Shown here one piece after another: positions 18,001 to 34,342 of a stretch of 64,000 bases of DNA. The stretch lies in IMG/VR virus record IMGVR_UViG_3300030380_006483; one strand, given 5' to 3'. The notes under the pieces were generated by a model, which was not told where the DNA came from, searched no databases, and saw nothing but the letters and a program-made list of their open reading frames with translations. The stretch is from a virus. The translations under genes and the position numbers were made by a program. Position 1 is the stretch's first letter, and each line of letters opens with the position of its first letter.

Positions 18001-18564
18001 ATGAATAAGATCATACATCCTTTTCAATTTCCTATATATAGTAAAAAATTATCAAGTTCTAATTTTTTAAAAATAAAAAATGATGTAGATATATTTCTTC
18101 AAAATAATACTTTAACAACACCTATTAATTGGGATTGCAATACTTTAAGTAGTATAAATATCCCCCCAGATAAAAATATTAATAGCCCTACTTTAATAAA
18201 TGAAATTCATAAATCATCATTAGAGTATTATAAAACATGGGAATTTGAAAATAATTTTAATTTAACCCTTTATCATATGTGGGTTAATATAGCCTCCCCA
18301 GGAGATTATCAAGAAGTTCATCACCATATTCCTTCACTATTTAGTGGTGTTTTATATATAGATTGTTCTGAAAAAAGTGGAAATATTTCTTTTAGAAATC
18401 CTTTAAAATCTGAATTTGGTTTAATGGGAATTGAAAAAAATATTACAATTACCCCTGAAATGGGATTATTAATTTTATTTCCTTCTTGGTTAGAACATTC
18501 TGTATTTGAAAATAAATCAAATAAAAATAGAATATCAGTTAGTTTTAATATAAATAAAAAATGA
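18001..18564 (+). CDS. 2OG-Fe(II) oxygenase-like protein (TIGR02466-like)
   Basis: MWVN..PGDYQEVHHH..SGVLY..FPSWLEHSV..RISVSFN. Confidence 0.8.
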   Translation: MNKIIHPFQFPIYSKKLSSSNFLKIKNDVDIFLQNNTLTTPINWDCNTLSSINIPPDKNINSPTLINEIHKSSLEYYKTWEFENNFNLTLYHMWVNIASPGDYQEVHHHIPSLFSGVLYIDCSEKSGNISFRNPLKSEFGLMGIEKNITITPEMGLLILFPSWLEHSVFENKSNKNRISVSFNINKK

Positions 18565-18806
18565 AAAAAATACTTTATTTTACAGCAGCATGGTGTGGTC
18601 CATGCCAAGCATTAGGTCCTATAATGGATTCATTACAAGGACAAATCAACTTTGATAAAATCGATGTTGATTCAAACACTGAACTATCAGCTCAATATGG
18701 AGTTAGAGGAGTTCCTTCATTAATTCTTTTAGAAAATGAAAAAGAAATTAATAGATTAGTAGGTGTACAATCAAAAGAGAATATACTTAAATTTTATAAT
18801 GGGTAA
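18561..18806 (+). CDS. trxA: Thioredoxin
   Basis: WCGPC active site, VRGVP cis-Pro motif. Confidence 0.92.
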   Translation: MKKILYFTAAWCGPCQALGPIMDSLQGQINFDKIDVDSNTELSAQYGVRGVPSLILLENEKEINRLVGVQSKENILKFYNG

Positions 18807-19467
18807 TTTAGATAAAATTTTTAAAAGTATTTATGTTGAAAAAAAATGGGGTTATAAAGATAATGATGTTTTTTACTCTGGTATGGGGTCACATTATAAA
18901 GATCTAGTAAACCCATATATAAATTCTATTAAAAATTTTACTGAAAATTTTAAAGAAAAACTTAACGTAATTGATATAGGTTGTGGTGATTTTAATGTAG
19001 GTAAACAACTATTACCTTATTTTAATAATTATACTGCTGTAGACGTTGTAGATTCTTTAATTAAATATAATAAAAATAAATTTAAAAACTTAAATGTTAA
19101 TTTTCAAACCCTAAATATAACTAATCAAACTATTCCCTTTACTGATGTAATTATATTAAAACAAGTTTTGCAACATCTATCAAATCAAGATATTTTTAAT
19201 ATTCTAAAAAATATATATTTAAAAAGCAAATACATAATTCTTACAGAAAGTATACCTTATGATTCTTTTACTCCAAATTTAGACATTAAATCTGGAGTTA
19301 AAACAAGAGTTGCAGAAAATAATAGTGGAGTAGATATACTTTCTTTACCATTTAATTTCCCTATTCAAGAAAAATTTATTACATTAACATTAGAAGAAAT
19401 GATTGAATCAGGAGAGGATAAATTAAAATATTTAACACAAACAATAATATATAAGCAATATGAGTAA
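18799..19467 (+). CDS. Class I SAM-dependent methyltransferase
   Basis: SGMGS, VIDIGCGDFN, D..ILKQVLQHLSN motifs; likely ATG at 18799. Confidence 0.8.
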   Translation: MGNLDKIFKSIYVEKKWGYKDNDVFYSGMGSHYKDLVNPYINSIKNFTENFKEKLNVIDIGCGDFNVGKQLLPYFNNYTAVDVVDSLIKYNKNKFKNLNVNFQTLNITNQTIPFTDVIILKQVLQHLSNQDIFNILKNIYLKSKYIILTESIPYDSFTPNLDIKSGVKTRVAENNSGVDILSLPFNFPIQEKFITLTLEEMIESGEDKLKYLTQTIIYKQYE

Positions 19468-19924
19468 ATTTATATCAACAAAAATTTTTGATGGTTTTAG
19501 TTGTGTCTTTAGACAATGGAAAGCTGAAACTACACACTGTAGATACCTTCATGGTTATGGGGTATCATTTAAATTATGGTTCGAAGGTGAACTAGATGAA
19601 AGAAATTGGGTATGGGATTTCGGAGGAATGAAAAGAGCAAAAGGTCAAATAGATGGAATGTCTCCTAAAGCATGGATGGATAATATGTTTGATCATACCT
19701 TCTTAGTAGCAGAAGATGATCCCTTTAAGGAATCATTTATAAGAATGGATGAAGCAGGAGTAGCTCAAGTCAGAATAGTACCAGCTACTGGGGCAGAGAA
19801 GTTTGCCGAATTTATCTTTAATAAATTAAACCCATTTATCCAGGAAGAAACAGATGGTAGAGTAAAAGTAATAAAAGTAGAATTTAGAGAGCACGGAAAA
19901 AATAGTGCAATATATGAAGATTAG
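19460..19924 (+). CDS. queD: 6-carboxy-5,6,7,8-tetrahydropterin synthase (QueD-like variant)
   Basis: HCRYLHGY, DFGG, FDHT, EKFAE..V..EHGKNSA T-fold motifs; sits among que genes. Confidence 0.8.
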   Translation: MSKFISTKIFDGFSCVFRQWKAETTHCRYLHGYGVSFKLWFEGELDERNWVWDFGGMKRAKGQIDGMSPKAWMDNMFDHTFLVAEDDPFKESFIRMDEAGVAQVRIVPATGAEKFAEFIFNKLNPFIQEETDGRVKVIKVEFREHGKNSAIYED

Positions 19925-20678
19925 TCACGAGGTACCTAAGGTTTTATTAAATAATAGTCGAGAATGGAATGATTATGATTATTGTTTACCTCATCTTTTA
20001 GATGAAGATGAACAATATAAAAATTTTTTCTATGAATCTAAAAAACAAGGTCGTTATATTATTATGGATAATTCACTTCATGAATTAGGTAAAGCATATA
20101 ATCACGAAAGATTATTACACTGGATAACAGAATTACAACCAAATGAATTTATAGTACCTGATGTTTGGATGAAACAAGCCCAAACTTGTGCTCAGGCAAA
20201 ATATTGGTTACAATTTAAATATCCTAAAAATACTAAAATAGTAGCTGTAGTACAAGGTGAAGATAAAGTTAAAGCACATTTATGTGCTAGTTTAATTAGA
20301 GATTTAGGATATAATAAACTTTGTATATCTTATGGTGCGGGTTGGTATGGTGATAATCCTTTAAATAAAGCCCTAGGTAGAATAAATTTTGTTAAAGAGT
20401 TGTTAGAAGATAAAAGATATAAAGATACTAAATTTCATTTATTAGGTTGTGCTGTACCTCAAGAGTTTGGTTGGTATAGAAATGAATCTCAAATAGAATC
20501 AATTGATACCTCAAACCCAATAATGGCAGCTTTAGAAGGAATTTCGTACACAAAAAGTGGTTTAATAGAAAAACCAAAAGCAAATATGAATACTCATTTT
20601 GATATTGAACCTGAAAAAATTGATTATAATAAAATATTAAAAAACGTAAAAAGATTTAGAACAATAAATGGTTTATAA
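19914..20678 (+). CDS. Divergent TGT-fold protein, candidate DpdA-type 7-deazaguanine transglycosylase
   Basis: IMDNS (cf. TGT DSG), IVPD, VVQG, FHLLG and SIDTSNP occur in TGT order; lies between queD and queC. Confidence 0.6.
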   Translation: MKISHEVPKVLLNNSREWNDYDYCLPHLLDEDEQYKNFFYESKKQGRYIIMDNSLHELGKAYNHERLLHWITELQPNEFIVPDVWMKQAQTCAQAKYWLQFKYPKNTKIVAVVQGEDKVKAHLCASLIRDLGYNKLCISYGAGWYGDNPLNKALGRINFVKELLEDKRYKDTKFHLLGCAVPQEFGWYRNESQIESIDTSNPIMAALEGISYTKSGLIEKPKANMNTHFDIEPEKIDYNKILKNVKRFRTINGL

Positions 20679-20866
20679 TGGCAGAAATAATTAGACATAT
20701 TAGTGGAATGTGTGGTGAACATTTTCACCCAAACATTTGGCACCTTTTATTAGGTGGGGTTGGAATAACAACTATTTTATCGTATATTAGTTTATACTTA
20801 AAATGTAAATTTAAAGCGTTTGCCTATACGCTTAATAATACCTGGCAAAAATTTAAATTAAAATAG
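20678..20866 (+). CDS. Small hypothetical membrane protein
   Basis: 62 aa, one hydrophobic segment, CGEHFHP motif. Confidence 0.55.
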   Translation: MAEIIRHISGMCGEHFHPNIWHLLLGGVGITTILSYISLYLKCKFKAFAYTLNNTWQKFKLK

Positions 20867-20868
20867 AA

Positions 20869-21663
20869 ATGGCAAAAAATGTCGTAGTATCCTTATCTGG
20901 AGGGATGGATTCCTCAACTTTATTACTTAGATGTTTATCTGAGTATGATAACGTAACTGCTTTATCTTTTGATTATGGTCAAAAACATAGAGTAGAATTA
21001 GAAAGGGCTCAATCATTAATTAACTATGTTAATGAAAATGGGCAAAATGTAAATTACCAAGTTATTAAATTAGATGGTTTAGTTAATTTATTAGAATCAA
21101 ATTTAGTAGATGGGGGTGATGATGTACCTGAAGGACATTATGAAGAAGAAAATATGGTTGCAACTGTAGTACCTAATAGAAATAAAATATTTGCTTCTAT
21201 TACCCAAGCAGTAGCATTATCTATAGCAAATAAAACAGAAGAATCTTGTGATATTGCTTTAGGTATTCATGCTGGCGACCACGCAATTTATCCTGATTGT
21301 AGACAAGAATTTAGAGATGCTGATGATGCAGCATTTAGAGTTGGTAATTGGAACTCAGAAACTGTGGGTTACTTTACACCGTATTTAGAAACAGATAAAT
21401 TTGGAATACTACAAGATGGACAAATCCTTGTTAAGAACCTTGGAATTGATTTTAATGAAGTATATAGACGTACTAATACTTCTTATAAACCTTTCCCTAG
21501 CGGTAATAGCGATTATAAATCAGCGAGTTCAGTGGAAAGGATTGAAGCATTCATTAAATTGGGTGTCAGTGACCCTGTACAATATGAGGACGAAACTGGG
21601 CCGGTAGATTATGAAGTTGCGAGAAAACATGTTGAAAAGTTATTAGCAGAATATTCGGAATAA
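20869..21663 (+). CDS. queC: 7-cyano-7-deazaguanine synthase (QueC), Zn-cysteines absent
   Basis: SGGMDS, FDYGQKH, VPNRN, HAGDHAIYPDCR, VERIEAF. Confidence 0.9.
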   Translation: MAKNVVVSLSGGMDSSTLLLRCLSEYDNVTALSFDYGQKHRVELERAQSLINYVNENGQNVNYQVIKLDGLVNLLESNLVDGGDDVPEGHYEEENMVATVVPNRNKIFASITQAVALSIANKTEESCDIALGIHAGDHAIYPDCRQEFRDADDAAFRVGNWNSETVGYFTPYLETDKFGILQDGQILVKNLGIDFNEVYRRTNTSYKPFPSGNSDYKSASSVERIEAFIKLGVSDPVQYEDETGPVDYEVARKHVEKLLAEYSE

Positions 21664-21699
21664 TAATATTTATGGGTTATAAAATTAGAAAGTAAAAAA

Positions 21700-21843
21700 A
21701 TGCCAAAAATAAGTAAAGAAACAGGTAACCCACAAGTTAATACAGCTCGTGATAGTTTTAATAATAATGTACAAAAATTAAGTTTATTAGGGAAAACTAA
21801 AAAGGTGCAATGGGGTGATATGAGAAGATATCGCACCATTTAA
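21700..21843 (+). CDS. 47 aa hypothetical protein (not in ORF track)
   Basis: MPKISKETGNPQVNTARDSF...RRYRTI*; A-rich leader; fills the gap before the tRNA. Confidence 0.5.
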   Translation: MPKISKETGNPQVNTARDSFNNNVQKLSLLGKTKKVQWGDMRRYRTI

Positions 21844-21847
21844 AAAT

Positions 21848-21920
21848 TGCGGGGTGGAGCAGAAGGTAGCTCGCTGGGCTCATAACCCAGAGGTCAGAGG
21901 TTCGAATCCTCTCCCCGCCA
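21848..21920 (+). tRNA. tRNA-Met(CAT), initiator type
   Basis: Full cloverleaf; anticodon stem CTGGG/CCCAG with three G-C pairs; T1:C72 mismatch; T-loop TTCGAAT; CCA not encoded (CTA follows). Confidence 0.93.
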
Positions 21921-21927
21921 CTATTTT

Positions 21928-22446
21928 ATGGAAACAATAAATTTATTTCCCCAAATTTTAAAATCATTTAAGTATTCTAATAATACTAATTTTCTTTTAG
22001 AAGAAATAAATAAAATTAAAGCTTTATATCCAAATAAAGCTCCTTCTTTATTTAAAGATGCAATTTATACTTCTCCAAATTTTCTTTTTCAAAGTTATAA
22101 AAATTTTAAATTTTTAGAAAATGATATAAAATCATTAGTTTTAAAAAATTATAATAAAAATTGTAAAATTACTGATTCTTGGATTAATATATATTATAAA
22201 CATGGGTATAATGATTTCCATAACCATTTTAAAAATGATCTAGCAGGGGTATTATATTTAAAGGTTCCAAAATCTCATCCTGGGATTAATTTTCATAATA
22301 AACATAACCCTATTCAAATATTTAATTATAAACCTCCCTCTAATACAATAATCTTCTTTGATGGTGATCAATATCACAGTTCTTTTCCTAACCCTGAAAA
22401 TACTGAAAAAATAATTATAGCGTTTAATATATCTTTTAAAGATTAA
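21928..22446 (+). CDS. 2OG-Fe(II) oxygenase-like protein (TIGR02466-like)
   Basis: SWINIY..DFHNH..AGVLY..FFDG.QYH..IAFN. Confidence 0.75.
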   Translation: METINLFPQILKSFKYSNNTNFLLEEINKIKALYPNKAPSLFKDAIYTSPNFLFQSYKNFKFLENDIKSLVLKNYNKNCKITDSWINIYYKHGYNDFHNHFKNDLAGVLYLKVPKSHPGINFHNKHNPIQIFNYKPPSNTIIFFDGDQYHSSFPNPENTEKIIIAFNISFKD

Positions 22447-22454
22447 TATATTTA
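22423..22454 (+). promoter_or_regulatory. Possible promoter for the tail fibre gene
   Basis: TTTA-N20-TATATTTA (imperfect -33). Confidence 0.35.
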
Positions 22455-22498
22455 AACAAAAAGTTTACAATATTTATAGATATAAATTTATATATTAG

Positions 22499-24334
22499 AT
22501 GGCTACATTAACCAATAGGACTATAAGATCGACTTACGATCAACTTTTACAACTAGAAGATAATTTAATTCAAGACGGTTTTGGAACTCATTCTTTAAGT
22601 GGTTCCTATAATCTTACTGGAAGTCAATTTATATCTGGTAATCTTCATATTAATGGTACAGCTTCTATTGATTATTTAGTTTCTTCTTATGAATCATCAT
22701 CTATTATTTTTAGTTCAGGTTCAACAAAATTCGGAGATGACACTTCAGATACCCATGAATTTACGGGAAGTGTTCTAATAAGTGGTTCCGCTTTTAGTAC
22801 AAATTGGAGTGGATCCTTTACTGGTTCATTTATTGGTTTAGCAGATTCTTCATCTAATGCGACAAGAGCAGTTACTGCTTCACAAGCTGATAGAGCTACA
22901 ACATCTTCCCTTGCTAATAAGGCCTCTAATCTACAAATAGTTGGAGAAGATTCAAGTGCAGCCACTCATTATGTTCTTTTTGGCCCTAACTCATCAGGAG
23001 AATCTGATGTTAATGCAGATGGTAATTTAAATTATGTACCCAATACTGAAACTTTAACAGTTACTAAAGTAATAGGTAATTTAGAAGGAACAGCATCAAA
23101 TGCTGATACAGCATCTGTATTATTAGGTTCTGTAATTTCGGCTTCTCATTGTGAGACCGCTTCACTAGCAATTTCAACATCAGTAGTTAATGTTACTTCA
23201 ACTTCATTTGCAAACAGTGGTGATGGTCCATTTACTGGTTCATTTTCATCCAGTTTACCTTCATTATTATCCGGTTCATTTACAGGTTCCTTTACTGGCT
23301 CATTAGTTGGTAATACATCAGTTAGTAACATACTACAAACTGGTACTACTCAAACAACGGGATCTAATACTATTTCTGGGTCATTAACAATAACAGGAAG
23401 TTCAACTTTAGCAGTAAGAATAACTGGTAGTACAGCTTTAACAGGAAGTCTATTACAAAGTGGCAGTATTGTATCAACTGGAAGTTTATTACAAAAAGGT
23501 AGTACACAAATTTCAGGTTCTACTCTTTTATCAGGTTCATTACTTTTAACAGGTAGTAGTACCCTGGCATTAAGAGTTAGCGGTAGTACAGCTTTAACGG
23601 GTAGCTTACTACATAGTGGTAGTACAGCCCTAACGGGGAGTTTATTACAAAGTGGTAGTATTGCATTAACTGGAAGTTTATTACAGATTGGTACTACACA
23701 AACTACTGGATCTAATATTATATCTGGATCATTATTAATAACAGGTAGTTCTGCAATAGGACTTAGAATGTCTGGAAGTACGGCATTAACGGGTAGTGTT
23801 TTCCAAACAGGATCACTTAATGTAACTGGTAGTACTAATTTATCTGGATCTTTAGTAATAGTAGGAAATATTAATACGGGACAGGGTGTTACAGAAGTAT
23901 ATTTACAAAACCAAAATTTAAGAACAGCTGATTCAGTACAATTTAATGGACTAGGAGTTGGAACAGCACCATCAGGAGTAGCAGGAGCTATTTTAGCTAC
24001 TAATGATGTTGTAGCATTTGCTTCTTCAGATGAAAGATTAAAGGAAAATCTAGAACCAATTGGAAGTGCTACAGAAAAAATAGGACAATTAACTGGTTAT
24101 ACATTTGATTGGATTCCAATGGAAGGAATTCATGTACATTCAGGACATGATGTTGGAATTATTGCTCAAGAAGTAGAAAAGGTACTTCCTGAAGTTGTAG
24201 AAACAAGAAAAAATGGTTATAAAGCTGTTAAATATGAAAAACTTACAGCATTACTTATACAAGCCCTTAACGAACAACAAAAAGAAATTGATAACCTTAA
24301 AAGTAAGGTTGGATCGTTAGAAAATCGTTTGTAA
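22499..24334 (+). CDS. Tail fibre/spike-like protein with GS repeats and a C-terminal intramolecular chaperone (peptidase S74-like)
   Basis: SSDERLKEN..GYTFDW..DVGIIAQEVEKVLPEVV..YKAVKYEKL..LIQA plus terminal coiled coil; central GSxxx[ST] repeats. Confidence 0.85.
   Translation: MATLTNRTIRSTYDQLLQLEDNLIQDGFGTHSLSGSYNLTGSQFISGNLHINGTASIDYLVSSYESSSIIFSSGSTKFGDDTSDTHEFTGSVLISGSAFSTNWSGSFTGSFIGLADSSSNATRAVTASQADRATTSSLANKASNLQIVGEDSSAATHYVLFGPNSSGESDVNADGNLNYVPNTETLTVTKVIGNLEGTASNADTASVLLGSVISASHCETASLAISTSVVNVTSTSFANSGDGPFTGSFSSSLPSLLSGSFTGSFTGSLVGNTSVSNILQTGTTQTTGSNTISGSLTITGSSTLAVRITGSTALTGSLLQSGSIVSTGSLLQKGSTQISGSTLLSGSLLLTGSSTLALRVSGSTALTGSLLHSGSTALTGSLLQSGSIALTGSLLQIGTTQTTGSNIISGSLLITGSSAIGLRMSGSTALTGSVFQTGSLNVTGSTNLSGSLVIVGNINTGQGVTEVYLQNQNLRTADSVQFNGLGVGTAPSGVAGAILATNDVVAFASSDERLKENLEPIGSATEKIGQLTGYTFDWIPMEGIHVHSGHDVGIIAQEVEKVLPEVVETRKNGYKAVKYEKLTALLIQALNEQQKEIDNLKSKVGSLENRL
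23342..23866 (+). repeat. Intragenic 6/12-residue GS repeat array
   Basis: Repeated GSTALTGSLLQS-type units; DNA near-repeats such as ggtagtacagc(t/c)(t/c)taac. Confidence 0.85.
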
Positions 24335-24344
24335 ATTACCTTTA

Positions 24345-25454
24345 ATGAGTTATAATATTTTAGGAATTAACAGCAGTCATAATGGCTCAGTTTGTGTTTT
24401 ATGTGATGGGGAAATTGATTTTTTTGTAGAAGAAGAAAGATTTTCTAGAAATAAACATGAAGATACACCTGTAGAAATTTTAAAATATGTTGCTTCTAAA
24501 TATAAAATTGATGAAATTGCTATTGGTGGTTTAGAAATTCTTTTTGAAGCAAATGCTTCAAAAATTTATCAAAATTATTTAAAACTTTTATTCAAAAATA
24601 CTCCACTTACTAATTTATTAGGATCCCATCATCTTTGCCATGCTTTTTCTAGCTTTAGCAGTTCAGGTTTTAATAAAGCTTTATGTGTAGTTATAGATGG
24701 GTCTGGAAGTTTATTATATAGAAAAGAGGATGAAAAATTAATAGGAGTAGAAACTGAAAGTATTTTTACTTTTAAATATCCTACAAATATAAGCACTATA
24801 TATAAATCTTATAAAACTTTTAATCCTAATGATGATAAAAGTACAGATAGTAAATTAATGAATTTTAATATTACTTTAGGAAAATTATATGAAAGTATTA
24901 CTACTAAATTATTTGGACATTGGGTGTATGCCGGTAAGACTATGGGTTTATCTTCTTATGGAAAATATGACAAAAATATTCCTTCATTAATAATAAACCA
25001 AAGAGCTAATCCTAAATTTTTAGCAGGAAAAACTACAACTAATATTAAAATGGATCTTAATGATGTTGAAGGTACCATAAATACAAAGTATGATTATTTA
25101 TTTAAAGAAGAATTAAAGTCTAATATATGTTATCATTTACAAAATGAGATACAAGAAGTTGTAGGAGATATAATAGAAAAATATGTAAAAAAAACAGGAT
25201 TAAAAAAAGTTTGTGGCTCCGGAGGTTATTTTTTAAACTGTGTATCAAACTATTATTTAAAAAAAAGATTTCCTGATATAGATTTTTATTTTGACCCAAT
25301 ATCAAATGATGCAGGTATAGCATTAGGTGCTGCTAAATTATTGTGGCATATGAGAAAAAATGATACAACCATAAGACCTCAAAAAACATTATATAATGGG
25401 CCAAAATATACTAATAAAGAAATTTATAAAAAAATTCAAGAATATTTGGATTAG
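24345..25454 (+). CDS. Carbamoyltransferase (CmcH/NodU/TobZ family), N-terminal Kae1-like domain only (paralogue A)
   Basis: GINSSHNGS, EEERF.R.K, HHLCHA, VIDGSG, GKTMGLSSYG, GGYFLNC, DAG; ends after LYNGPKY with no YrdC-like domain. Confidence 0.85.
   Translation: MSYNILGINSSHNGSVCVLCDGEIDFFVEEERFSRNKHEDTPVEILKYVASKYKIDEIAIGGLEILFEANASKIYQNYLKLLFKNTPLTNLLGSHHLCHAFSSFSSSGFNKALCVVIDGSGSLLYRKEDEKLIGVETESIFTFKYPTNISTIYKSYKTFNPNDDKSTDSKLMNFNITLGKLYESITTKLFGHWVYAGKTMGLSSYGKYDKNIPSLIINQRANPKFLAGKTTTNIKMDLNDVEGTINTKYDYLFKEELKSNICYHLQNEIQEVVGDIIEKYVKKTGLKKVCGSGGYFLNCVSNYYLKKRFPDIDFYFDPISNDAGIALGAAKLLWHMRKNDTTIRPQKTLYNGPKYTNKEIYKKIQEYLD
25221..25303 (+). repeat. 83 nt near-identical repeat shared by paralogues A and B
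   Basis: 25221-25303 vs 28377-28459: 82/83 identical by manual alignment; partial copy around 31703-31781. Confidence 0.9.
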
Positions 25455-25476
25455 TTATATAGTTATATTATATTGG
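25445..25476 (+). promoter_or_regulatory. Bacteroidota-type promoter for queE-folE-PRTase
   Basis: TTTG-N20-TATATTGG; the -33 box lies in the last codons of paralogue A. Confidence 0.6.
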
Positions 25477-25491
25477 GACTAATATTAGTCC
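25476..25491. promoter_or_regulatory. Perfect 16 bp palindrome at the predicted TSS (operator or 5' hairpin)
   Basis: GGACTAATATTAGTCC equals its own reverse complement. Confidence 0.6.
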
Positions 25492-25525
25492 AAGTGACAG
25501 TAAAACCACTATAAAAAATTAACAT

Positions 25526-26299
25526 ATGCTTAAAAGAATAGACGATTATTCTAAACGTCTCCCAGTATTAGAATTATACACAGCAGTACAATCGGAGGGA
25601 TCCAGACAAGGATATCCTACTATTGTAGTTAGAACAACAGGCTGTACACACAGATGTTATTTTGGAGAAGGTGGATGGTGTGATAGCTGGTATACATCAA
25701 TACATCCTGAAAAAGGAAAATATAATTTTCAAGATATTATTGATATGTACGATAAACATCCCCATATAAAGGAGATGATGTTAACAGGAGGATCACCAAC
25801 AATGCATCCTGCTTTAGTAAATGAATTAACACACCTAGCAAATGAAAGAAATATTTTCATTACCATCGAAACTGAGGGATCTCATTTCCTTCCCACTGAC
25901 TTTCCTATTGGTCTCCTTAGTATTAGCCCTAAATTCAGTAATTCAGTTCCTACTCTCGGTGCTACAACTCCTCAAGGACATACTGTGGAGCAGAAGATGA
26001 TTGATAGACATAACAAGTATAGATTAAATAAAGAAGCTATAAAAAAGTCTATTGAATATCATAATGATTACCATATTAAACCCGTATTAGATAAAGATTT
26101 AACTATGGTAGGTGAAGTAGAAGAATTCATTAAAGAACTAGACATTCCAGATCATAAAATTTGGGCAATGCCAGCAGGTGATGATAGGGAATCATTATTT
26201 GAAAGTTATGGTCCTGTAATGAACTTTGTAAGGGATAGAGGTTGGAGATATACCGGTAGATCCCATATAATGGCCTTTGATACAGAAAGAGAGGTTTAA
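25526..26299 (+). CDS. queE: 7-carboxy-7-deazaguanine synthase (radical SAM)
   Basis: VQSEG..G..VRTTGC; CX3CX7C cluster motif; LTGGSP, ETEG, SISPK. Confidence 0.88.
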   Translation: MLKRIDDYSKRLPVLELYTAVQSEGSRQGYPTIVVRTTGCTHRCYFGEGGWCDSWYTSIHPEKGKYNFQDIIDMYDKHPHIKEMMLTGGSPTMHPALVNELTHLANERNIFITIETEGSHFLPTDFPIGLLSISPKFSNSVPTLGATTPQGHTVEQKMIDRHNKYRLNKEAIKKSIEYHNDYHIKPVLDKDLTMVGEVEEFIKELDIPDHKIWAMPAGDDRESLFESYGPVMNFVRDRGWRYTGRSHIMAFDTEREV

Positions 26300-26434
26300 A
26301 TGGATAAGGAAGAAGCACTCCAAATTTTAGAAGAAATAAAAGAAAATGTAAATGTCTGCTGTGCCGTTACTATGGAACCAGAAGATGTATTAGAATTAAT
26401 AGATAAATTAGAAAGTTATATAAATGAACAATAG
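26300..26434 (+). CDS. 44 aa acidic protein (not in ORF track)
   Basis: MDKEEALQILEEIKENVNVCCAVTMEPEDVLELIDKLESYINEQ*; coupled to queE and folE. Confidence 0.55.
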   Translation: MDKEEALQILEEIKENVNVCCAVTMEPEDVLELIDKLESYINEQ

Positions 26435-27116
26435 AAAACAACAACACACAGATTTAGAATCTGTACCAGTAGGTTACGCAAATGGTGTAGCACCTGGATT
26501 TCCTTTAACAGATAAGGAAAAACAAAAAATGATAGATCGTGCTGCAAAAGCATATGGTAAATTCTTAACTGAATTAAAATGTGATTGGGAAAATGATCCT
26601 AATTCGGCTGATACACCAAGACGTGTAGCTAAAGCCTATGTAAATGATTTATGGGAAGGTAGATATACTGCTATGAGTGAAGTAACATCTTTCCCAAGTG
26701 ATGGTTATGATGGTATAGTAATAGAAAGAAATATACCAATTACATCAATGTGTTCTCACCACCACCAAACTATAAAAGGTTTAGTACATATAGGTTATAT
26801 CGCAGATGAAGATGGTAGAGTAGTTGGATTATCTAAATTAAATAGGATAGTAGAATTATTTGGTAGAAGAGGAGCAATACAAGAACAATTAACATCAGCG
26901 ATTCACAATGCTGTAAACACTATTTGTACGAATAATAAAGGTGTTATTGTTACAGTAGTAGCTACACATAATTGTGTTAGTTGTAGAGGAGTAAAACATC
27001 ATGGAGCTTCAATGGTTACAACAAAAGCATCTGGTGTATTTATGCAAAATGAAAACTTAGCTAGAAAGGAGTTTTTTGATTCAATTAAAGTTAATAATGG
27101 AAATCATCCTGTATAA
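26424..27116 (+). CDS. folE: GTP cyclohydrolase I
   Basis: DTPRRVAK, SMCSHH, GLSKLNR, IQEQLT, HNCVSCRGV. Confidence 0.93.
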   Translation: MNNRKQQHTDLESVPVGYANGVAPGFPLTDKEKQKMIDRAAKAYGKFLTELKCDWENDPNSADTPRRVAKAYVNDLWEGRYTAMSEVTSFPSDGYDGIVIERNIPITSMCSHHHQTIKGLVHIGYIADEDGRVVGLSKLNRIVELFGRRGAIQEQLTSAIHNAVNTICTNNKGVIVTVVATHNCVSCRGVKHHGASMVTTKASGVFMQNENLARKEFFDSIKVNNGNHPV

Positions 27117-27553
27117 TGGTAATAGAATTAAATGATAAAGCATTCCTATCATGGGATGACATAGAAAAACAAGTTGATAAACTTGTAGAACAAATAAATA
27201 AAATGGATAAAAAACCATTTTACATTTATGGTGTGCCTCGTGGAGGAGCCATTCCAGCTGTATGGTTATCTCATAAAACTGGTATAAAATATCAACAAAT
27301 TAATTCATCCCAAATATCAAAATCAGCAGATTTATCTCATGTATTGATAGTAGATGATATTTGTGATTCAGGAGAAACAATACAAAAACTTAAAGAAGAT
27401 TTCCCTAAGTGTTTAACTGCAACTTTATATCATAAAGAATCAGCAATTGATAAACCAGATATTTATGGAGAAATATCCACGTATAATTGGTTATATTTTC
27501 CTTGGGAAAACCAACAATCCTCAGAAGTAAGAGATAACACATATGGGTTATAA
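27116..27553 (+). CDS. Type I phosphoribosyltransferase (Gpt/XGPRT-like)
   Basis: GVPRGG, PRPP loop LIVDDICDSGET, W.YFPWE. Confidence 0.88.
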   Translation: MVIELNDKAFLSWDDIEKQVDKLVEQINKMDKKPFYIYGVPRGGAIPAVWLSHKTGIKYQQINSSQISKSADLSHVLIVDDICDSGETIQKLKEDFPKCLTATLYHKESAIDKPDIYGEISTYNWLYFPWENQQSSEVRDNTYGL

Positions 27554-28607
27554 TATTCTAGGAGTTACTCCTGGTCATAATGGTTCTATAGCTTTAGTTT
27601 CAAACGGAAAATTAGTTTTTTATTTAGAAGAAGAAAGATTATCTAAGGTAAAAAAAGATGCTAATCCATTAAAGACACTTTATTTTTCATTACAAAAATA
27701 TAAGATAGATGAAGTAGTATTATGTGGTGCCGGACGTCAATCACCAAACTTAGTCCGTAAAGGAGAGGATTTATATTATTCTATATCTAGAAAATTTTAT
27801 CCTAAAGTAAAATTCACTAGTTATGAAGATCATCATCATCTAACACATGCAGCTTCTTCATTTTATACTTCTGGTTTTCAAAAATCTTTAGGAGTAGTAA
27901 TTGATGCCCAAGGATCCAATTTTAATTATAAAGGAGAAAAAATATTTGAAAATGATTCTTTATTTTATTGTGAATATCCTAATAATATTAATCCAATCCA
28001 TAAAATATATCTTTCTGATTCTATTAGTCATTCAACTAAACAAGAAAAAATTACACCCTTTTTTTCAACAGCAAAGGTTTATGAAGCAGTAAGTGAATAT
28101 TTAAATTTTCATGAAGAAGAGGGTAAAACTATGGGTTTATCTTCTTATGGTAAGTCTAATTCTTTTATTTTAGATTTTTTAAAGGATGGAATAATAAACC
28201 CTAAATATTATACACATGAAAAAACTTATGGTTCTATATACCCAAAAATGAAGTTCCCTAAAAATATCCCTCCTAAAGATATAGCATGGGAAATTCAAAA
28301 TAAATCCCAACAAATAGTAGGTGATTATATAGAAAAAGGAATTAAAGAAACAGGATTAAAACAAGTTTGTTGCGCTGGAGGTTATTTTTTAAACTGTGTA
28401 TCAAACTATTATTTAAAAAAAAGATTTCCTGATATAGATTTCTATTTTGACCCAATATCCCATGATGGTGGAACCTCAATTGGAGCAGCTTTATATAGAT
28501 GGTACAACCACTCTCAGGATAAGAGTATAAGACCTAGAAAAAATTTGTATAATGGTTTTAAATATTCTAAAAAAGAATTAAAAAAAATAATTAAAAAATA
28601 TTTATAA
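27543..28607 (+). CDS. Carbamoyltransferase, N-terminal domain only (paralogue B)
   Basis: GVTPGHNGS, EEERLSK.K, HHLTHA, GKTMGLSSYG, GGYFLNC, DGG; ends after LYNGFKY. Confidence 0.85.
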   Translation: MGYNILGVTPGHNGSIALVSNGKLVFYLEEERLSKVKKDANPLKTLYFSLQKYKIDEVVLCGAGRQSPNLVRKGEDLYYSISRKFYPKVKFTSYEDHHHLTHAASSFYTSGFQKSLGVVIDAQGSNFNYKGEKIFENDSLFYCEYPNNINPIHKIYLSDSISHSTKQEKITPFFSTAKVYEAVSEYLNFHEEEGKTMGLSSYGKSNSFILDFLKDGIINPKYYTHEKTYGSIYPKMKFPKNIPPKDIAWEIQNKSQQIVGDYIEKGIKETGLKQVCCAGGYFLNCVSNYYLKKRFPDIDFYFDPISHDGGTSIGAALYRWYNHSQDKSIRPRKNLYNGFKYSKKELKKIIKKYL

Positions 28608-28609
28608 TT

Positions 28610-28996
28610 ATGAAAGACTTTAATTCAAAAGATAAATCTAAAGGGTTAGGAGATACAATAGCAAAAATTACTAATGCTACTGGTTTAGATAAAATAGCCG
28701 ATGCTGTAGCTAAAGCAGCAGGCGCCGAAGATTGTGGTTGTAATAAAAGGAGAAAAACATTAAATGAACTTTTTCCTTACACTAAAAAAACAGAAATTAA
28801 AAAACCACATATTAATACTAAACCTTTAGATAAAATTACTGGAAAATATGAGGTTATTCAAAAAATTCATTGTACCTTACCAGAATTAGGAAGGATAACT
28901 TTTAATAAAGGTTCTGTTTTATTAATAGATAAAAAACACCCTTTATATAAAGATATTTCTTTTTACTATAAAAAAAATATTATTAAAAAAATATAA
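28610..28996 (+). CDS. Hypothetical protein with GLGD..DCGC motif
   Basis: KGLGDTIAKIT..DCGCNKRR..LN.LFPY, a pattern I recall from phage ORFs; function unknown. Confidence 0.65.
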   Translation: MKDFNSKDKSKGLGDTIAKITNATGLDKIADAVAKAAGAEDCGCNKRRKTLNELFPYTKKTEIKKPHINTKPLDKITGKYEVIQKIHCTLPELGRITFNKGSVLLIDKKHPLYKDISFYYKKNIIKKI

Positions 28997-30736
28997 ATGG
29001 CATATAATATTCTAGGAATTAATCCTGGCCATAATGGTTCTGCCGCCGTAATTTCAGATGGTAAGTTAGTTTATTATTTAGAAGAAGAAAGATTAACAAA
29101 AGAAAAAAGAGATGGAAATCCTTTTAAAACTATAATCGATATTTGTTCTAAGTTTTCTATTAACGAACTAATAATAGGGGGAACAAACACCCCAGCTGAA
29201 AGGTCAACTTTATCTTATACTAAAGAAAATCCCTATTTTTCTCTTGTAAGAAAATTAAATTTAGGAATAGAAGACTATACAAATTTATCCAGCAGCCACC
29301 ATTTATTGCATGCTTTTAGTAGCTTACATAATTCCCCATTTCAATCTGCTGCTGTTATAGTAGTAGATGGATGTGGGTCTTGGCTACACTATAATGATAT
29401 TGCTCCTTTTTCTTCACTTGCAATAGAAGAAGGTAAAAATAATAATGTTCATGAAGCTGAAAGTATATATGAGATAAATACAAATAAATTTCCAATTGAA
29501 GAGGGGATAGAAAAACATTATGTTAATTATATTAGTAATAATATTAATGTTGAAACTAAATTTATTAATAGAAATCCTGGAATAGTTAAAGTATATGAAG
29601 GTATAACCGATTATTTAGGTTTTCATCCTTTAGATGCAGGAAAAGTAATGGGTTTATCTTCTTATGGTAAGTCAAATCCAAACATTCCTCCTTTATTTGT
29701 AAATCATAAAGGTAATTTAGATATATTTAAACCATCATACCCAGCAAAATGTGAATTATTAACTAACAACACCCCAGTACTACATGGTAATCAAAAAACC
29801 AAAGACTTTCATCATGATAAATCAAAACTTAATATGGTTTATGCTGATTTAGCTTATGAAGTACAAACCCAAACAGAAAAAGAAATACATCACTTAATTG
29901 AAAAAGCTATAAATTTAACAGGTAATAATAATATTTGTATTACTGGAGGGTATGGGTTAAATTGTGTAGCTAATTATAACATGAAAAAAAAATTCCCTAA
30001 GATAAACTTTTTTCATGATCCTGTATCTTTTGATGGGGGAATATCAATAGGTGCAGCATACTTAGGATGGTTAATAAAAAAAGAGAAAAACGATAAATCA
30101 AAATCATTTTCACTTTATTTAGGCCCTAAATATTCTTTAAAAAAATATAAAAAACAAATTAAAAATTATTCAAAAATGTTTAACACTTATAAAGTAAATT
30201 ATAAAGATGTAGCTAAAATAATTTCAGAAAGAAATATAGTTACAATATTCCAAGGCAGATCAGAGGCTGGTCCTCGTGCTTTAGGAAATAGGTCCATTTT
30301 ATACGATCCAACAGACCCTAATGGTAAGGATTTTGTAAATAAAGTTAAAAAAAGAGAATGGTTTAGACCATTTGCTGGTACTGTTTTATTAGAAAAAGCT
30401 AATGAATATTTTGATATGGCTGGTTTAAAAGAATCTCCGTTTATGATGTATGCAATGGATGTTTGGCCTGATAAACAAGATAAAATTCCTTGTATTACCC
30501 ACGTAGATGGTACTTGTAGAATCCAAACATTAACCGAAGAACAAAATCCACATTATTATAAATTAATTCAAGAATTTGAAAAAATAACAGGTGTACCTAT
30601 TTTATTTAATACTTCATTTAATTTAGCAGGTGATCCACTTGTAGAGACAATTGAAGATGCATTAGAAACAATGCTTAAAAGTGAAATGAAATATATGTAT
30701 GTTCCTGAATTAGAAATGCTTTTAGAGAAAAAATAA
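28997..30736 (+). CDS. Full-length carbamoyltransferase (Kae1-like plus YrdC-like domains; paralogue C)
   Basis: N-domain motifs plus GRSEAGPRALGNRSIL, KKREWFRPFA, SPFM, HVDGTCRIQT, LFNTSFN. Confidence 0.92.
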   Translation: MAYNILGINPGHNGSAAVISDGKLVYYLEEERLTKEKRDGNPFKTIIDICSKFSINELIIGGTNTPAERSTLSYTKENPYFSLVRKLNLGIEDYTNLSSSHHLLHAFSSLHNSPFQSAAVIVVDGCGSWLHYNDIAPFSSLAIEEGKNNNVHEAESIYEINTNKFPIEEGIEKHYVNYISNNINVETKFINRNPGIVKVYEGITDYLGFHPLDAGKVMGLSSYGKSNPNIPPLFVNHKGNLDIFKPSYPAKCELLTNNTPVLHGNQKTKDFHHDKSKLNMVYADLAYEVQTQTEKEIHHLIEKAINLTGNNNICITGGYGLNCVANYNMKKKFPKINFFHDPVSFDGGISIGAAYLGWLIKKEKNDKSKSFSLYLGPKYSLKKYKKQIKNYSKMFNTYKVNYKDVAKIISERNIVTIFQGRSEAGPRALGNRSILYDPTDPNGKDFVNKVKKREWFRPFAGTVLLEKANEYFDMAGLKESPFMMYAMDVWPDKQDKIPCITHVDGTCRIQTLTEEQNPHYYKLIQEFEKITGVPILFNTSFNLAGDPLVETIEDALETMLKSEMKYMYVPELEMLLEKK

Positions 30737-30740
30737 AATT

Positions 30741-31937
30741 ATGAAAATATTAGGATTTAATCCTTCTCATCATAGCTCTACTTGTATAGTAAATAATGGT
30801 GAAATAGAATACTTCATCCAAGAAGAAAGAATAAATAAAATGAAATATGTTTCTTTCCCAATGGAATCTTTTATAGAACTCCTAAAAAACAGAACCCCAG
30901 ATGTAGTATGTTTCGCTGGTGCTAGTATATCTTTTCCACTTTGTGGCCAATCAGATGACAACCTTTGGCATGTAATAACTGATATTTACTTAAAAGAAAA
31001 TTATGAATTTTTTGATTTTTCTTTTAGTTATGATCAAAAGAATAAACCTAATGATGGAGGATTCCATCATATTGCACATGCTTCTAGTGCTTTTTACAAT
31101 TCAGGCTTTAAAGAAGCTTTATGTTTAGTAGCAGATGGATTAGGATCTATTATTTTAAATAGTGGTACTGAAACTGAAACTCTTTTTAAATTTTCATATC
31201 CATCTTTTTTTGAAATACTACATAAAAAACTATATATGGACAACTTTCCTAAACATGTATCAGAATCTCTCCCAGATAATATGACAATAACAACAAAAGT
31301 AAACCTAAGTAGAGTTTATGAAACTGTAACAATGTGGTTAGGGTTTAGTAGGAATGATGCTGGTAAAACTATGGGTTTATCTTCTTATGGAAAATATAAT
31401 AAAAATATTCCTAATTTTTTAGATAAAGAAGGAGATGGAGACCCCAATGTAATTATTGTTGACCGTGATAGAAAAGGAGAATATGAAATTGAAAAAGGAT
31501 ATCAGTGTACTTTTATAGATAAAGAAAAGAATCCTTATTTAAAAAACCAAGATGCAACAAAATGGCACCATAATAAATCAAATATAACAGACTTAGAAAA
31601 AGACGTAGCTTGGAAAGTTCAAGATGAAACACAAAAAAGAATAGGTGATATAATAGAAAAAGGAATTAAAGAAACAGGATTAAAACAAGTTTGTTGTAGT
31701 GGGGGTTATTTTTTAAATTGTGTTGCAAACTATTATCTTGTAAAAAGATTTCCTGATATAGATTTTTATTTTGACCCAATAGCTAATGATGCTGGTACAG
31801 CTATGGGAATAGCTCAATTAGTTTATCATCACAAAACTAGAGATACTACTATAAGACCTTTAAAATCTTTATATTTAGGTCCAAAATATCCAAAAGAAGA
31901 ACTATTAAAAGAAATTAAAAAATATGTGGATAACTAA
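30741..31937 (+). CDS. Carbamoyltransferase, N-terminal domain only (paralogue D)
   Basis: GFNPSHHSS, QEERI, HHIAHA, GKTMGLSSYG, GGYFLNC, DAG; ends after LYLGPKY. Confidence 0.85.
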   Translation: MKILGFNPSHHSSTCIVNNGEIEYFIQEERINKMKYVSFPMESFIELLKNRTPDVVCFAGASISFPLCGQSDDNLWHVITDIYLKENYEFFDFSFSYDQKNKPNDGGFHHIAHASSAFYNSGFKEALCLVADGLGSIILNSGTETETLFKFSYPSFFEILHKKLYMDNFPKHVSESLPDNMTITTKVNLSRVYETVTMWLGFSRNDAGKTMGLSSYGKYNKNIPNFLDKEGDGDPNVIIVDRDRKGEYEIEKGYQCTFIDKEKNPYLKNQDATKWHHNKSNITDLEKDVAWKVQDETQKRIGDIIEKGIKETGLKQVCCSGGYFLNCVANYYLVKRFPDIDFYFDPIANDAGTAMGIAQLVYHHKTRDTTIRPLKSLYLGPKYPKEELLKEIKKYVDN

Positions 31938-31956
31938 TTTAAAAATATTATATTAT
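31925..31956 (+). promoter_or_regulatory. Possible promoter for the MazG-like gene
   Basis: TGTG-N20-TATATTAT inside the end of paralogue D, same register as the 25445 promoter. Confidence 0.45.
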
Positions 31957-31960
31957 CAAT

Positions 31961-32464
31961 ATGAAAAAATCAAACGTACCTTTTGTAAATGAAGTAGAAG
32001 ATTTTAATAATTTAATGTCTAAACCAAATAATTATACACCTACTATTCCTGAAAAAAAAGAATGGCAATTTGTATATGACTTTGTTTTAGAAGAATTAGA
32101 AGAATATAAAGAAGCATGTGAAAAGGGAGACATTGTAGAAATATTAGATGCTTTATGTGATATAGCTTATGTATCTTTAGGAAATGGTACTATGCTTCAT
32201 GGCCTAAAAGATAAAATATGGCCAGCTTATCAGGAAGTTCAGGCATCAAATATGTCAAAGGCATGTAAAACTGTAAACGAAGCTATTGAAACTACTCTTA
32301 AAAGATCTGAGGAACAAGGGGAACCTTGTCATTGGGAACAAGTAGGCGATATGTATATTGTGTATAGAACACGTGATCGTAAAGTAATGAAATCACTTAC
32401 TTACTTTAGACCCGATCTAAAACAATTCTTTACCGATGAAGAAATTACTAACAGTACTAAGTAA
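31961..32464 (+). CDS. MazG-like all-alpha NTP pyrophosphohydrolase (PRA-PH-like)
   Basis: LEELEEY..EILDALCDIAYV..EVQASNMSK..KVMK. Confidence 0.82.
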   Translation: MKKSNVPFVNEVEDFNNLMSKPNNYTPTIPEKKEWQFVYDFVLEELEEYKEACEKGDIVEILDALCDIAYVSLGNGTMLHGLKDKIWPAYQEVQASNMSKACKTVNEAIETTLKRSEEQGEPCHWEQVGDMYIVYRTRDRKVMKSLTYFRPDLKQFFTDEEITNSTK

Positions 32465-33746: not shown

Positions 33747-33748
33747 AA

Positions 33749-34339: not shown

Positions 34340-34342
34340 TTT

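Follow-up and report, generated by a model that had tools for sequence, protein, structure and literature searches.

Complete replacement of guanine has been described for three phages with a transglycosylase of the DpdA3 subfamily, CP220, phiST and Flavobacterium phage immuto, and attempts to show an action of DpdA3 on DNA in E. coli failed (PMC10516641). The dADG system of CP220 and the dDG system of phiST (PMC10516641) resemble the locus described here in that each genome encodes a DpdA3 homologue and a small Gpt-like 6-oxopurine phosphoribosyltransferase (PRTase). However, this PRTase is located ∼110 kb (CP220) and ∼17 kb (phiST) from dpdA3, with no folE in its listed neighbourhood. Next to dpdA3 these phages have kinases and a hydrolase of HD or dUTPase-like type, and their pathways end at CDG, ADG or DG. 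In the Queuovirinae the insertion requires DpdA and the modification is partial (PMC6884629); all modification was lost in a dpdA mutant of CAjan, and plasmids were modified in trans by the DpdA of 9g. The tubercidin and toyocamycin clusters are similar in gene content, combining a PRTase (TubE, ToyH) with FolE, QueD, QueE (and QueC) and a nucleotide hydrolase, but they contain no nucleic-acid transglycosylase and their products are free nucleosides (PMC6112128).

The stretch of 64,000 nucleotides analysed here (the window) belongs, judging from its genes, to an uncultured marine phage which is kin of immuto. The upstream genes for RecA, an exonuclease, DnaB and ribonucleotide reductase (RNR) as well as the downstream GroES/GroEL and glycosyltransferase genes are syntenic with immuto. 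With RNR on one side and the DNA polymerase on the other, the que/dpdA3 cluster belongs to the part of the genome devoted to replication and nucleotide metabolism; the phage encodes its own RNR and polymerases. Both phages share the genome architecture, DpdA3 and a Gpt-like PRTase adjoining folE. The Que enzymes are 64–71% identical to those of immuto and the product of the MazG-like gene 74%, whereas DpdA3 (34%) and the PRTase (38%) are far more diverged. The clusters also differ in content: that of immuto includes QueF, the formyltransferase DpdN and an AAA_28 kinase, all three missing from the window, which in turn carries additional methyltransferase, carbamoyltransferase and oxygenase insertions.

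The earlier note on this DNA had named queD, a divergent gene with a TGT fold, queC, queE, folE, a PRTase and a MazG-like gene; all seven are present where it had placed them, on the + strand, as are all other features given below. The first is queD (6-carboxy-tetrahydropterin synthase, 19460–19924; Pfam PTPS 5.7e-16, PHROG QueD-like 1.3e-40, 70% identity to immuto QueD). It is followed by queC of the preQ0 synthase type (20869–21663; Pfam QueC 3.6e-37, 69% identity to immuto QueC), the radical-SAM CDG synthase gene queE (25526–26299; PHROG QueE-like 2.2e-47, NCBIfam QueE 7.7e-14, 71% identity to immuto QueE) and folE for GTP cyclohydrolase I (26424–27116; Pfam 7e-43). From their family membership, FolE, QueD, QueE and QueC would convert GTP to preQ0, the pathway which the note had combined with a DpdA-type enzyme. 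In immuto the product of QueC must feed QueF. The window contains no QueF homologue, also in line with the note, and no window ORF of at least 50 amino acids matches the QueF/DpdN/kinase stretch of immuto; moreover, the cluster in the window holds no formyltransferase or decarboxylase. Since these enzymes are missing, preQ0 itself or something closely derived from it is the most likely inserted base, and since DpdN and the AAA_28 kinase are missing together with QueF, the pathway should end at preQ0 or yield a derivative different from that of immuto.

The TGT-like gene (19905–20678) starts probably at ∼19914, because its homologues have 254 amino acids. By tblastn its product is 38% identical to gp056 of CP220, 34% to the annotated DpdA of immuto and 21% to the phiST protein. 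With the AlphaFold (AF2) model (pLDDT 92.9) Foldseek returned 236 matches at E ≤ 0.001, and the best among the matches listed are tRNA-guanine transglycosylases (∼3e-8). The residues D55, D86, Q117, H178–G181 and D201 are invariant across 30 homologues. By sequence and model the protein is thus a DpdA3 member, which gives the suspected TGT-fold gene a subfamily. To our knowledge, all characterised TGT and DpdA enzymes act on polynucleotides. The predicted DpdA3 would swap guanine for a preQ0-type base, probably in DNA, and by analogy with the three studied DpdA3 phages the exchange is probably complete.

The earlier note had not mentioned that other, unrelated genes lie scattered through the interval: a tRNA gene, an oxygenase gene, a tail-fibre-like gene, four carbamoyltransferase-like genes and two small conserved genes. 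A SAM-dependent methyltransferase gene (18763–19467; Pfam Methyltransf_12/25 ∼4e-8) overlaps the start of queD; in the relatives L011 and L008, which lack it, the gene ahead of queD codes for thioredoxin or PC4. The methyltransferase appears to be a lineage-specific insertion and possibly a tailoring enzyme. Between dpdA3 and queC a small hydrophobic protein of 62 amino acids is encoded (20678–20866), which has no family match in Pfam or PHROG and is found at the same position in L011 and L019–L025. Further downstream follow a tRNA-Met (CAT) gene (21848–21921; ARAGORN, Rfam tRNA 63 bits) and, by Pfam, genes for a 2OG-Fe(II) oxygenase (21928–22446), a tail-fibre-like protein with an S74 chaperone domain (22499–24334) and a paralogue of the carbamoyltransferase N-domain (24345–25454). 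Three more carbamoyltransferase-like genes (Pfam) are found at 27543–28607, 28997–30736 (full length) and 30741–31937. The window has four such copies versus none in L011, two in L008 and one detected in L020, where the contig limits the count. The tail-fibre-like gene is conserved at this place in relatives, and the oxygenase and carbamoyltransferase content varies. By this comparison the carbamoyltransferases, oxygenases, methyltransferase and tail-fibre-like gene are variable insertions and not parts of the pathway. The region between the PRTase and the MazG-like gene also encodes a protein of 128 amino acids (28610–28996) without a Pfam match, which is found in nine related loci; in L011 the order is PRTase, 128-amino-acid protein and MazG-like protein, without the insertions. 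The MazG-like gene is followed by a gene for a membrane/coiled-coil protein of 437 amino acids (32436–33746), conserved in relatives, for which Pfam and PHROG gave no match and the tests run no enzyme signature.

The PRTase gene (27116–27553; Pfam Pribosyltran 7.4e-10) codes for a protein whose best solved relatives are PDB 1vdm (1.7e-11), Sulfolobus GpT and the XGPRT of E. coli and Yersinia (∼1e-9); with 61 bits it scores under the 138-bit equivalog cut-off of the NCBIfam XPRT model. With the cellular Gpt/XGPRT-type and archaeal enzymes (1vdm, 4z1o, 1a95, 6kqc) it shares the type I PRT fold, the PRGG loop, the DDxxDxGxT PRPP loop and a Lys and a Trp aligned with the base-binding positions of XGPRT. 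The cellular enzymes differ in that the identity is only ∼30–40%, the loop after the second strand is shortened in the phage protein, and coupling or fusion to FolE is seen for the phage PRTase but not for its cellular homologues. The cellular kin (25–45% identity) are stand-alone, ordinary salvage enzymes: of 80 cellular loci that encode them, 76 lack que genes in the vicinity. Among the phages, 18 of the 26 IMG/VR DpdA3 loci reaching folE contain the PRTase. The PRTases of contigs without QueF are 46–55% identical to that of the QueF-bearing immuto, so by sequence the kinship of the PRTases does not follow the base type.

Within the phages the PRTase goes with folE, whose product uses GTP at the entry of the pathway, and not with queC or dpdA3. 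In the window the folE stop and the PRTase start codon overlap as TAATG, which points to translational coupling, as the note had proposed; among the 18 related viral contigs with a PRTase, 17 have it within 50 nt of folE, and in most of these stop and start overlap. The adjacency is also found in immuto and in Brevundimonas phage MaInes, whose 266-aa neighbour of queE is DpdA3-like (hhalign 97%), and the stop–start coupling is kept over DpdA3 identities of 38–77%, including unrelated phage morphotypes. FolE of Vibrio phage VpKK5, a member of the Queuovirinae, even carries an N-terminal mini-PRT domain, which matches the phage PRT HMM built here (3.9e-14) and retains the motifs PRGG, DDIIDSG and FPWE. 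In L033 and L042 a canonical Hpt-type HGPRT (E. coli Hpt, 1e-24) lies beside folE in place of the Gpt-type enzyme, which indicates that the function of this slot is 6-oxopurine salvage and that either type can fill it. The PRTase is absent from two of the five complete related genomes and, by Pfam, from BSP7 and MA9V-3, and is dispensable in some relatives.

The MazG-like gene (31961–32464; Pfam PRA-PH 2.3e-10, 74% identity to immuto gp208) codes for an all-alpha NTP pyrophosphohydrolase, in which E44, E45, E48, D63 and D67 are invariant. The earlier note had proposed that it removes dGTP. MazZ of cyanophage S-2L acts on dGTP. In comparison to the AF2 model (pLDDT 96.1), however, MazZ is a weaker match (VIA Z 6.7) than the top structural match, DR2231 of Deinococcus radiodurans (Foldseek 3.6e-4; VIA Z 9.9, 127 aligned). 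The DR2231 fold matches best over the whole length and the acidic metal-binding motif is conserved, but identity is only 15–18% at a TM of ∼0.6, and such fold similarity does not fix the substrate. According to the title of a 2016 FEBS J article, DR2231 is exclusively active on dUTP (cited in PMC10014863). All five complete genomes have exactly one dUTPase-type gene in this slot: immuto has the MazG-like type, G001 a canonical dUTPase and G003–G005 a DCD-like (dCTP-deaminase-like) protein, and the three types never co-occur. By position the MazG-like enzyme would be the phage's pyrimidine dNTP pyrophosphatase of the dUTPase type; on both fold and position it is probably not a dGTP-exclusion enzyme, contrary to the note.

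Taken together, we suggest, with somewhat better than even confidence, that the locus is a DpdA3-type 7-deazaguanine DNA-modification module in which the PRTase recycles the expelled guanine and the MazG-like enzyme occupies the dUTPase-type slot. That the PRTase salvages guanine set free by DpdA had been the alternative in the earlier note; this reading is favoured by the linkage and fusion to FolE, the Hpt in the slot, the dispensability of the PRTase and its salvage-type cellular kin. GMP needs two further kinase steps before FolE, and for this reason adjacency or fusion to FolE is a link and not evidence of consecutive steps. Some observations run counter to this reading. A post-replicative model leaves the kinases and NTP hydrolases beside dpdA3 of other lineages unexplained, and the joint divergence of the PRTase and DpdA3 from immuto is as expected under a shared substrate shift.

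It is unlikely, in our view, that the PRTase and the MazG-like enzyme only serve the general nucleotide pool of this large, AT-rich marine phage without being linked specifically to deazaguanine. Such a role would suit the position of the cluster between RNR and polymerase, the ordinary salvage function of the cellular relatives and the dispensability of the PRTase; PRTase relatives also occur in PA5oct-like jumbo phages, for which no deazaguanine link was found. However, of the 47 phage records with a PRTase relative 25 are DpdA3(-like) phages and seven more have it as a FolE domain, the stop–start coupling persists across diverged DpdA3 lineages and unrelated morphotypes, and the PRT–FolE fusion argues for a specific functional link.

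Slightly less probable is the route preferred by the earlier note, in which the PRTase adds ribose-5-phosphate to preQ0 (or CDG), kinases, RNR and polymerase install the base, the MazG-like enzyme destroys dGTP and DpdA3 patches residual G. Total base replacement is typical of pre-replicative routes, and the PRTase is present in all three phages with 100% replacement. The phage has its own RNR and polymerases, and its PRTase and DpdA3 diverge together from immuto. There is also precedent: TubE, which shares its cluster with FolE, QueD and QueE, has been demonstrated to be a CDG:PRPP transferase, and ToyH has been proposed to act likewise on preQ0 (PMC6112128). Moreover, a modified-dGTP route was formerly proposed for Campylobacter phages (PMC6884629), and an ADG nucleoside was reported from infected cells (PMC10516641). 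Against this route, the PRTase is coupled to folE and not queC, is missing from two of five complete DpdA3 genomes as well as BSP7 and MA9V-3, and is replaced by a canonical Hpt in some contigs, and the kinship among PRTases is independent of the final base. VpKK5, where the PRTase is fused to FolE, belongs to the Queuovirinae, in which insertion depends on DpdA. A canonical dUTPase is found in the MazG-like slot of relatives, the base would also enter RNA if the route ran via ribonucleotides, and DpdA3 is universal with its catalytic motifs kept.

Because dpdA3 of other lineages has small kinases and NTP hydrolases as neighbours, we regard some nucleotide-level route as doubtful rather than negligible. 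In CP220 dpdA3 is flanked by an HD-phosphohydrolase/P-loop fusion and an AAA_28 kinase, of which immuto has a homologue (32% identity, 5e-19) two genes from dpdA3; P-loop kinases lie directly upstream of dpdA3 in Bacillus phage BSP7 and Chryseobacterium phage MA9V-3, and a dNMP-kinase-like gene lies beside PRT or folE in phiST and MaInes. About as improbable as the route of the note is a swap by DpdA3 on free dGMP or deoxyguanosine from an NTP hydrolase, with kinases rebuilding the triphosphate, a polymerase incorporating it and the PRTase only recycling guanine: the minimal 254-aa barrel, the failed E. coli tests and the linked 100% replacement would suit it, but no such kinase is found in the window cluster, the AAA_28 homologue is far from the cluster in complete relatives, kinases belong to the usual content of replication modules, the hydrolase slot looks dUTPase-like, and the characterised TGT/DpdA enzymes act on polynucleotides.

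Thus the gene calls, the pathway logic and the salvage alternative of the earlier note stand, and the ribosylation of preQ0 and the removal of dGTP are not supported. The gene set in the window for exchanging guanine in DNA for a 7-deazaguanine is the already-known one, to which the PRTase is added as an unexplained but testable helper. With guanine salvage, the PRTase would convert expelled guanine and PRPP to GMP, as comparative genomics suggests; this step would remove the product of the exchange and regenerate the GTP used by FolE, so that one guanine would be recycled per deazaguanine made.

Searches against Pfam, PHROG and NCBIfam confirmed all seven genes that the earlier note had named, each at its position: queD (19460-19924), the TGT-like gene (19905-20678), queC (20869-21663), queE (25526-26299), folE (26424-27116), the PRTase gene (27116-27553), the start of which overlaps the folE stop as TAATG, and the MazG-like gene (31961-32464). 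These and all other genes of the window, which has a G+C content of ∼28%, lie on the + strand. Interspersed among the que cluster are genes that the note had not mentioned: a tRNA-Met, a 2OG oxygenase, a tail-fibre-like gene, four carbamoyltransferase-like genes and two small unknown genes.

A near-identity DNA search returned a single match, 421 bases of queC to phages of the Flavobacterium phage immuto type, and thus the phage is uncultured. The encoded proteins show synteny of the window with immuto, at identities from ∼40% to 72%. The shared order includes RecA, a 5′–3′ exonuclease, DnaB and the RNR subunits upstream of the cluster and GroES/GroEL together with a glycosyltransferase block downstream. 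The phage is known from metagenomes only. Hundreds of metagenomic proteins, many of them marine and some from contigs as long as 174 kb, are 60-100% identical to its PRTase and its TGT-like protein, which indicates that the phage represents an abundant uncultured clade.

The TGT-like protein is related by tblastn to gp056 of Campylobacter phage CP220 (38% identity, 8e-43), to the annotated DpdA of immuto (34%, 4e-39) and to a protein of Cellulophaga phage phiST (21%, 6e-6), and it is matched by PHROG 19058 at 6.7e-44. The CP220, immuto and phiST groups are those whose enzyme has been named DpdA3, and in all three G is completely replaced (PMC10516641). The AlphaFold (AF2) model of the window protein has a pLDDT of 92.9 and gave 236 Foldseek matches at E≤0.001, the top ones listed being all tRNA-guanine transglycosylases. 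Across 30 homologues D55, D86, Q117, the motif HLLG and D201 are invariant. These motifs follow the same order as the catalytic motifs of TGT, and from this order the acidic positions would take the roles of TGT Asp102 and Asp280. FolE, QueD, QueE and QueC are encoded together with this enzyme, and the module of the window is a further member of the known DpdA3 kind. Activity tests of DpdA3 in Escherichia coli failed, and no DpdA3 has been reported to act on DNA (PMC10516641). The isoelectric point proved to be uninformative as a proxy for DNA binding, since the family median is 6.05 and the Queuovirinae DpdA of Vibrio phage VpKK5 is likewise acidic.

A DpdA3 profile also detects MAINES_00850 of Brevundimonas phage MaInes (L016:13862-14662; hmmsearch 3e-13, hhalign 97% probability), a protein of 266 aa encoded beside queE which is annotated as hypothetical and is missed by the Pfam TGT model and by BLAST with the window protein. 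The range of DpdA3-like enzymes thereby comes to include a siphophage that infects Alphaproteobacteria, and folE and a PRT gene adjoin each other in the same phage. In addition, DpdA3, FolE, PRT and QueE co-occur on two contigs assigned to MAGs (L067, and L070, which is binned as Candidatus Woesearchaeota); these contigs are probably viral and mis-binned, or belong to a virus of the organism.

Which base is made can be read in part from the genes that are missing. No ORF of the window matches QueF, DpdN or the kinase genes of immuto, and no QueF was found above the family cut-off in five complete related genomes, so that the absence of QueF and of the kinases refers to the window and to these more distant complete relatives. 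The QueC of the window is 69% identical to immuto QueC, which must feed preQ0 to immuto QueF. Thus the inserted base is likely to be preQ0 or a near derivative, as judged from the sequences. A methyltransferase gene that overlaps the start of queD is missing from close relatives and could at most be a lineage-specific candidate for a tailoring enzyme. A preQ1 riboswitch 5′ of queE was considered and rejected, as the Rfam matches at E≤1 over 17000-35000 comprise a tRNA and chance-level matches only.

Comparison with close relatives separates the core of the cluster from insertions. In a 164-kb relative (L011) the order is queD, dpdA3, a 62-aa gene and queC and, farther on, queE, folE, two oxygenases, PRT, a 128-aa gene, the MazG-like gene, a 437-aa gene and PolB. 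This relative has no carbamoyltransferase gene; two further relatives have two (L008) and one (L020, where the contig limits the count), and the window has four on the + strand (24345-25454, 27543-28607, 28997-30736 and 30741-31937), one full and three N-terminal-domain-only paralogues. As the content differs among close relatives, carbamoyltransferase and oxygenase genes alike form variable cassettes. The carbamoyltransferase genes are mobile and lie outside the deazaguanine core; a role as core parts in base tailoring is rejected by the range of 0 to 4 copies beside the same que core. Four 2OG-Fe(II) oxygenase genes are dispersed in the replication module (10264-10836, 18001-18564, 21928-22446 and 33749-34339), and relatives differ in how many they have and where. 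The tail-fibre-like protein (22499-24334), which has a C-terminal S74 intramolecular-chaperone domain, occupies the gap between queC and queE and is found at the same place in relatives. Farther downstream the family-B DNA polymerase is split into a part with the exonuclease and the N-terminal polymerase region (34343-36094) and a C-terminal part (38262-39185, divDNApol match). The split is filled by a homologue of flavin-dependent tryptophan halogenases (36123-37652; Pfam 3.9e-97), a cupin and an 87-aa gene; the gene is split likewise in L008 and L011, with different genes in between, and the halogenase is not at that place in either of them.

The PRTase contains a type I PRT domain (PF00156, 7.4e-10) and matches PDB 1vdm, the Sulfolobus GpT and XGPRT at 1e-7 to 1e-11. 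Its PRPP loop DDICDSGET is conserved, with D80, D81, D84, G86 and T88 invariant, and it retains the PRGG loop. When aligned to 6kqc and 1vdm, a Lys and a Trp (the invariant W125) fall on the base-binding positions of XGPRT, which we take to be those of base binding and stacking in the XGPRT structures. Its sequence therefore places the PRTase as Gpt-like. It scores 61.2 bits against NCBIfam NF006613 (xanthine PRTase; cut-off 138) and thus is a divergent relative rather than an equivalog of the xanthine PRTase. We found no mention of the PRTase of phage deazaguanine clusters in the searchable literature.

Relatives of the PRTase are rare in phages (47 of 50,697 records). More than half of them, 25, are in phages with DpdA3 or a DpdA3-like enzyme (Firehammervirus 14, phiST group 5, immuto 4, Brevundimonas 2), 11 are in PA5oct-like jumbo phages, and seven are, by tblastn, part of the FolE gene in Vibrio, Pseudomonas and Stenotrophomonas phages. 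The FolE of VpKK5 (L006:6917-7819), the case that we checked in detail, has an N-terminal mini-PRTase domain of 115 aa with intact motifs (phage PRT HMM, 3.9e-14). A search for fused PRTases among longer proteins returned a single unrelated fusion of a PRT with a nucleoside phosphorylase. In IMG/VR a scan with DpdA3 gave 41 loci at 38-94% identity, 26 of which include folE and at least 1.5 kb past it. PRT is present in 18 of these 26 and lies at most 50 nt from folE in 17 of the 18, usually with overlapping stop and start codons. In two of these, contigs of the immuto type (L033:11438-11947 and L042:16215-16721), a canonical Hpt-type HGPRT adjoins folE in place of the Gpt-like enzyme (E. coli Hpt, 1e-24). 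Among the five complete related genomes PRT is found in three and is missing from two, and Pfam detects none in Bacillus phage BSP7 or Chryseobacterium phage MA9V-3, both of which have distant DpdA3-like genes. In GTDB genomes PRT relatives of 25-45% identity occur at 80 loci, for the most part in Ca. Actinomarina, DPANN archaea and Patescibacteria. Que genes lie nearby in no more than four of these loci, which probably stem from phage contigs that were binned into MAGs.

These observations lead us to favour guanine recycling as the role of the PRTase. The gene is linked to the GTP-consuming FolE and is fused to it in VpKK5, a member of the Queuovirinae, its slot is filled by either of two 6-oxopurine PRT families, it can be lost, and its kinship does not track the final base. 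The activity shared by the two families is the conversion of guanine to GMP. Loss of the gene would be expected if a host Gpt or Hpt can substitute. Among the Queuovirinae a dpdA mutant of CAjan is without any modification, and the DpdA of 9g acts in trans on plasmids (PMC6884629). Each base exchange would release one guanine and each new base would cost one GTP, so that the PRTase would close the loop and remove the product of the exchange. The salvage of guanine freed by DpdA, which the earlier note had offered as its alternative, hence becomes the favoured reading.

Alternatively, the modified base might enter at the level of nucleotides, which would explain the 100% replacement in DpdA3 phages. 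In one version DpdA3 would exchange the base on dGMP or deoxyguanosine that an NTP hydrolase provides; in the other the PRTase would form a deazaguanine ribotide. The DNA would then be built by small kinases of the phage together with its polymerase. In several lineages such genes are indeed close at hand. The dpdA3 gene of CP220 (L017:5874-8367) has as its neighbours an HD-phosphohydrolase/P-loop fusion and an AAA_28 kinase homologous to that of the immuto cluster (32% identity, 5e-19), P-loop kinases lie beside dpdA3 in BSP7 and MA9V-3, and dNMP-kinase-like genes adjoin PRT or folE in phiST and MaInes. However, pre-replicative whole-base systems (T4 hmC and the S-2L Z type) have a dedicated kinase for the modified nucleotide in the module, whereas the window contains no small P-loop kinase, and in its clade the AAA_28 homologue is located elsewhere in the genome. 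We consider this route improbable; it retains some weight because action of DpdA3 on DNA is undemonstrated and because kinases and NTP hydrolases do accompany dpdA3 in these lineages.

A use of a deazaguanine base by the PRTase itself, as the earlier note had preferred with preQ0 ribotide feeding the polymerase, is not supported. Two points do speak against guanine recycling: CDG can serve as the substrate of a PRT encoded in a cluster of this type, as TubE of the tubercidin cluster demonstrates (PMC6112128), and PRT and DpdA3 have both drifted much farther from their immuto counterparts than have the Que enzymes. The window PRTase lies, like TubE and ToyH (toyocamycin), within a FolE/QueD/QueE cluster. 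In contrast to the secondary-metabolite clusters, which as a rule are without one (bioRxiv 10.64898/2026.04.15.718813), the cluster of the window contains a nucleic-acid transglycosylase, DpdA3. The same five observations that argue for guanine recycling, including the VpKK5 fusion and the Hpt in the slot, leave the preQ0 reading unsupported.

For the MazG-like enzyme the earlier note had inferred a removal of dGTP. The protein is 74% identical to immuto gp208 and has no match among PDB sequences, and therefore a fold comparison was needed. Its AF2 model (pLDDT 96.1) has a four-helix all-alpha core matching DR2231, HisE and MazG, and it carries the metal-binding motif EExxE...D with E44, E45, E48, D63 and D67 invariant. 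The best match is DR2231, the MazG-like hydrolase of Deinococcus radiodurans (Foldseek 3.6e-4; VIA Z 9.9 over 127 residues), against Z 7-8.5 for HisE and other MazG proteins and 6.7 for MazZ of cyanophage S-2L, which acts on dGTP. For DR2231 the title of a 2016 FEBS J paper, as given in the reference list of PMC10014863, states exclusive dUTP activity. In each of five complete genomes a single dUTPase-type gene occupies the slot that follows folE and PRT. It is MazG-like in immuto, from which both a trimeric dUTPase and a DCD-like gene are missing, and in G001 it is a canonical dUTPase (3e-17). In G003, G004 and G005 the slot is taken by a DCD-like protein, and these three genomes are without a MazG-like gene. 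The simplest common function of the slot would be hydrolysis of dUTP or dCTP rather than removal of dGTP. The idea that non-homologous NTP hydrolases share the slot for dGTP exclusion was dropped, given the canonical dUTPase and the DR2231 match.

The post-replicative model which the field holds for the complete replacement of G in three phage groups has the presence of DpdA3 as its sole basis. To the DpdA3 kind the window adds an abundant marine clade that appears to lack QueF. It also sharpens the picture of a helper, a 6-oxopurine PRTase tied to FolE, which comes from two families, is fused to FolE in a third phage group and can be lost. A guanine-recycling loop would explain how a phage affords one GTP for each G that it replaces and what could pull a reversible exchange to completion.
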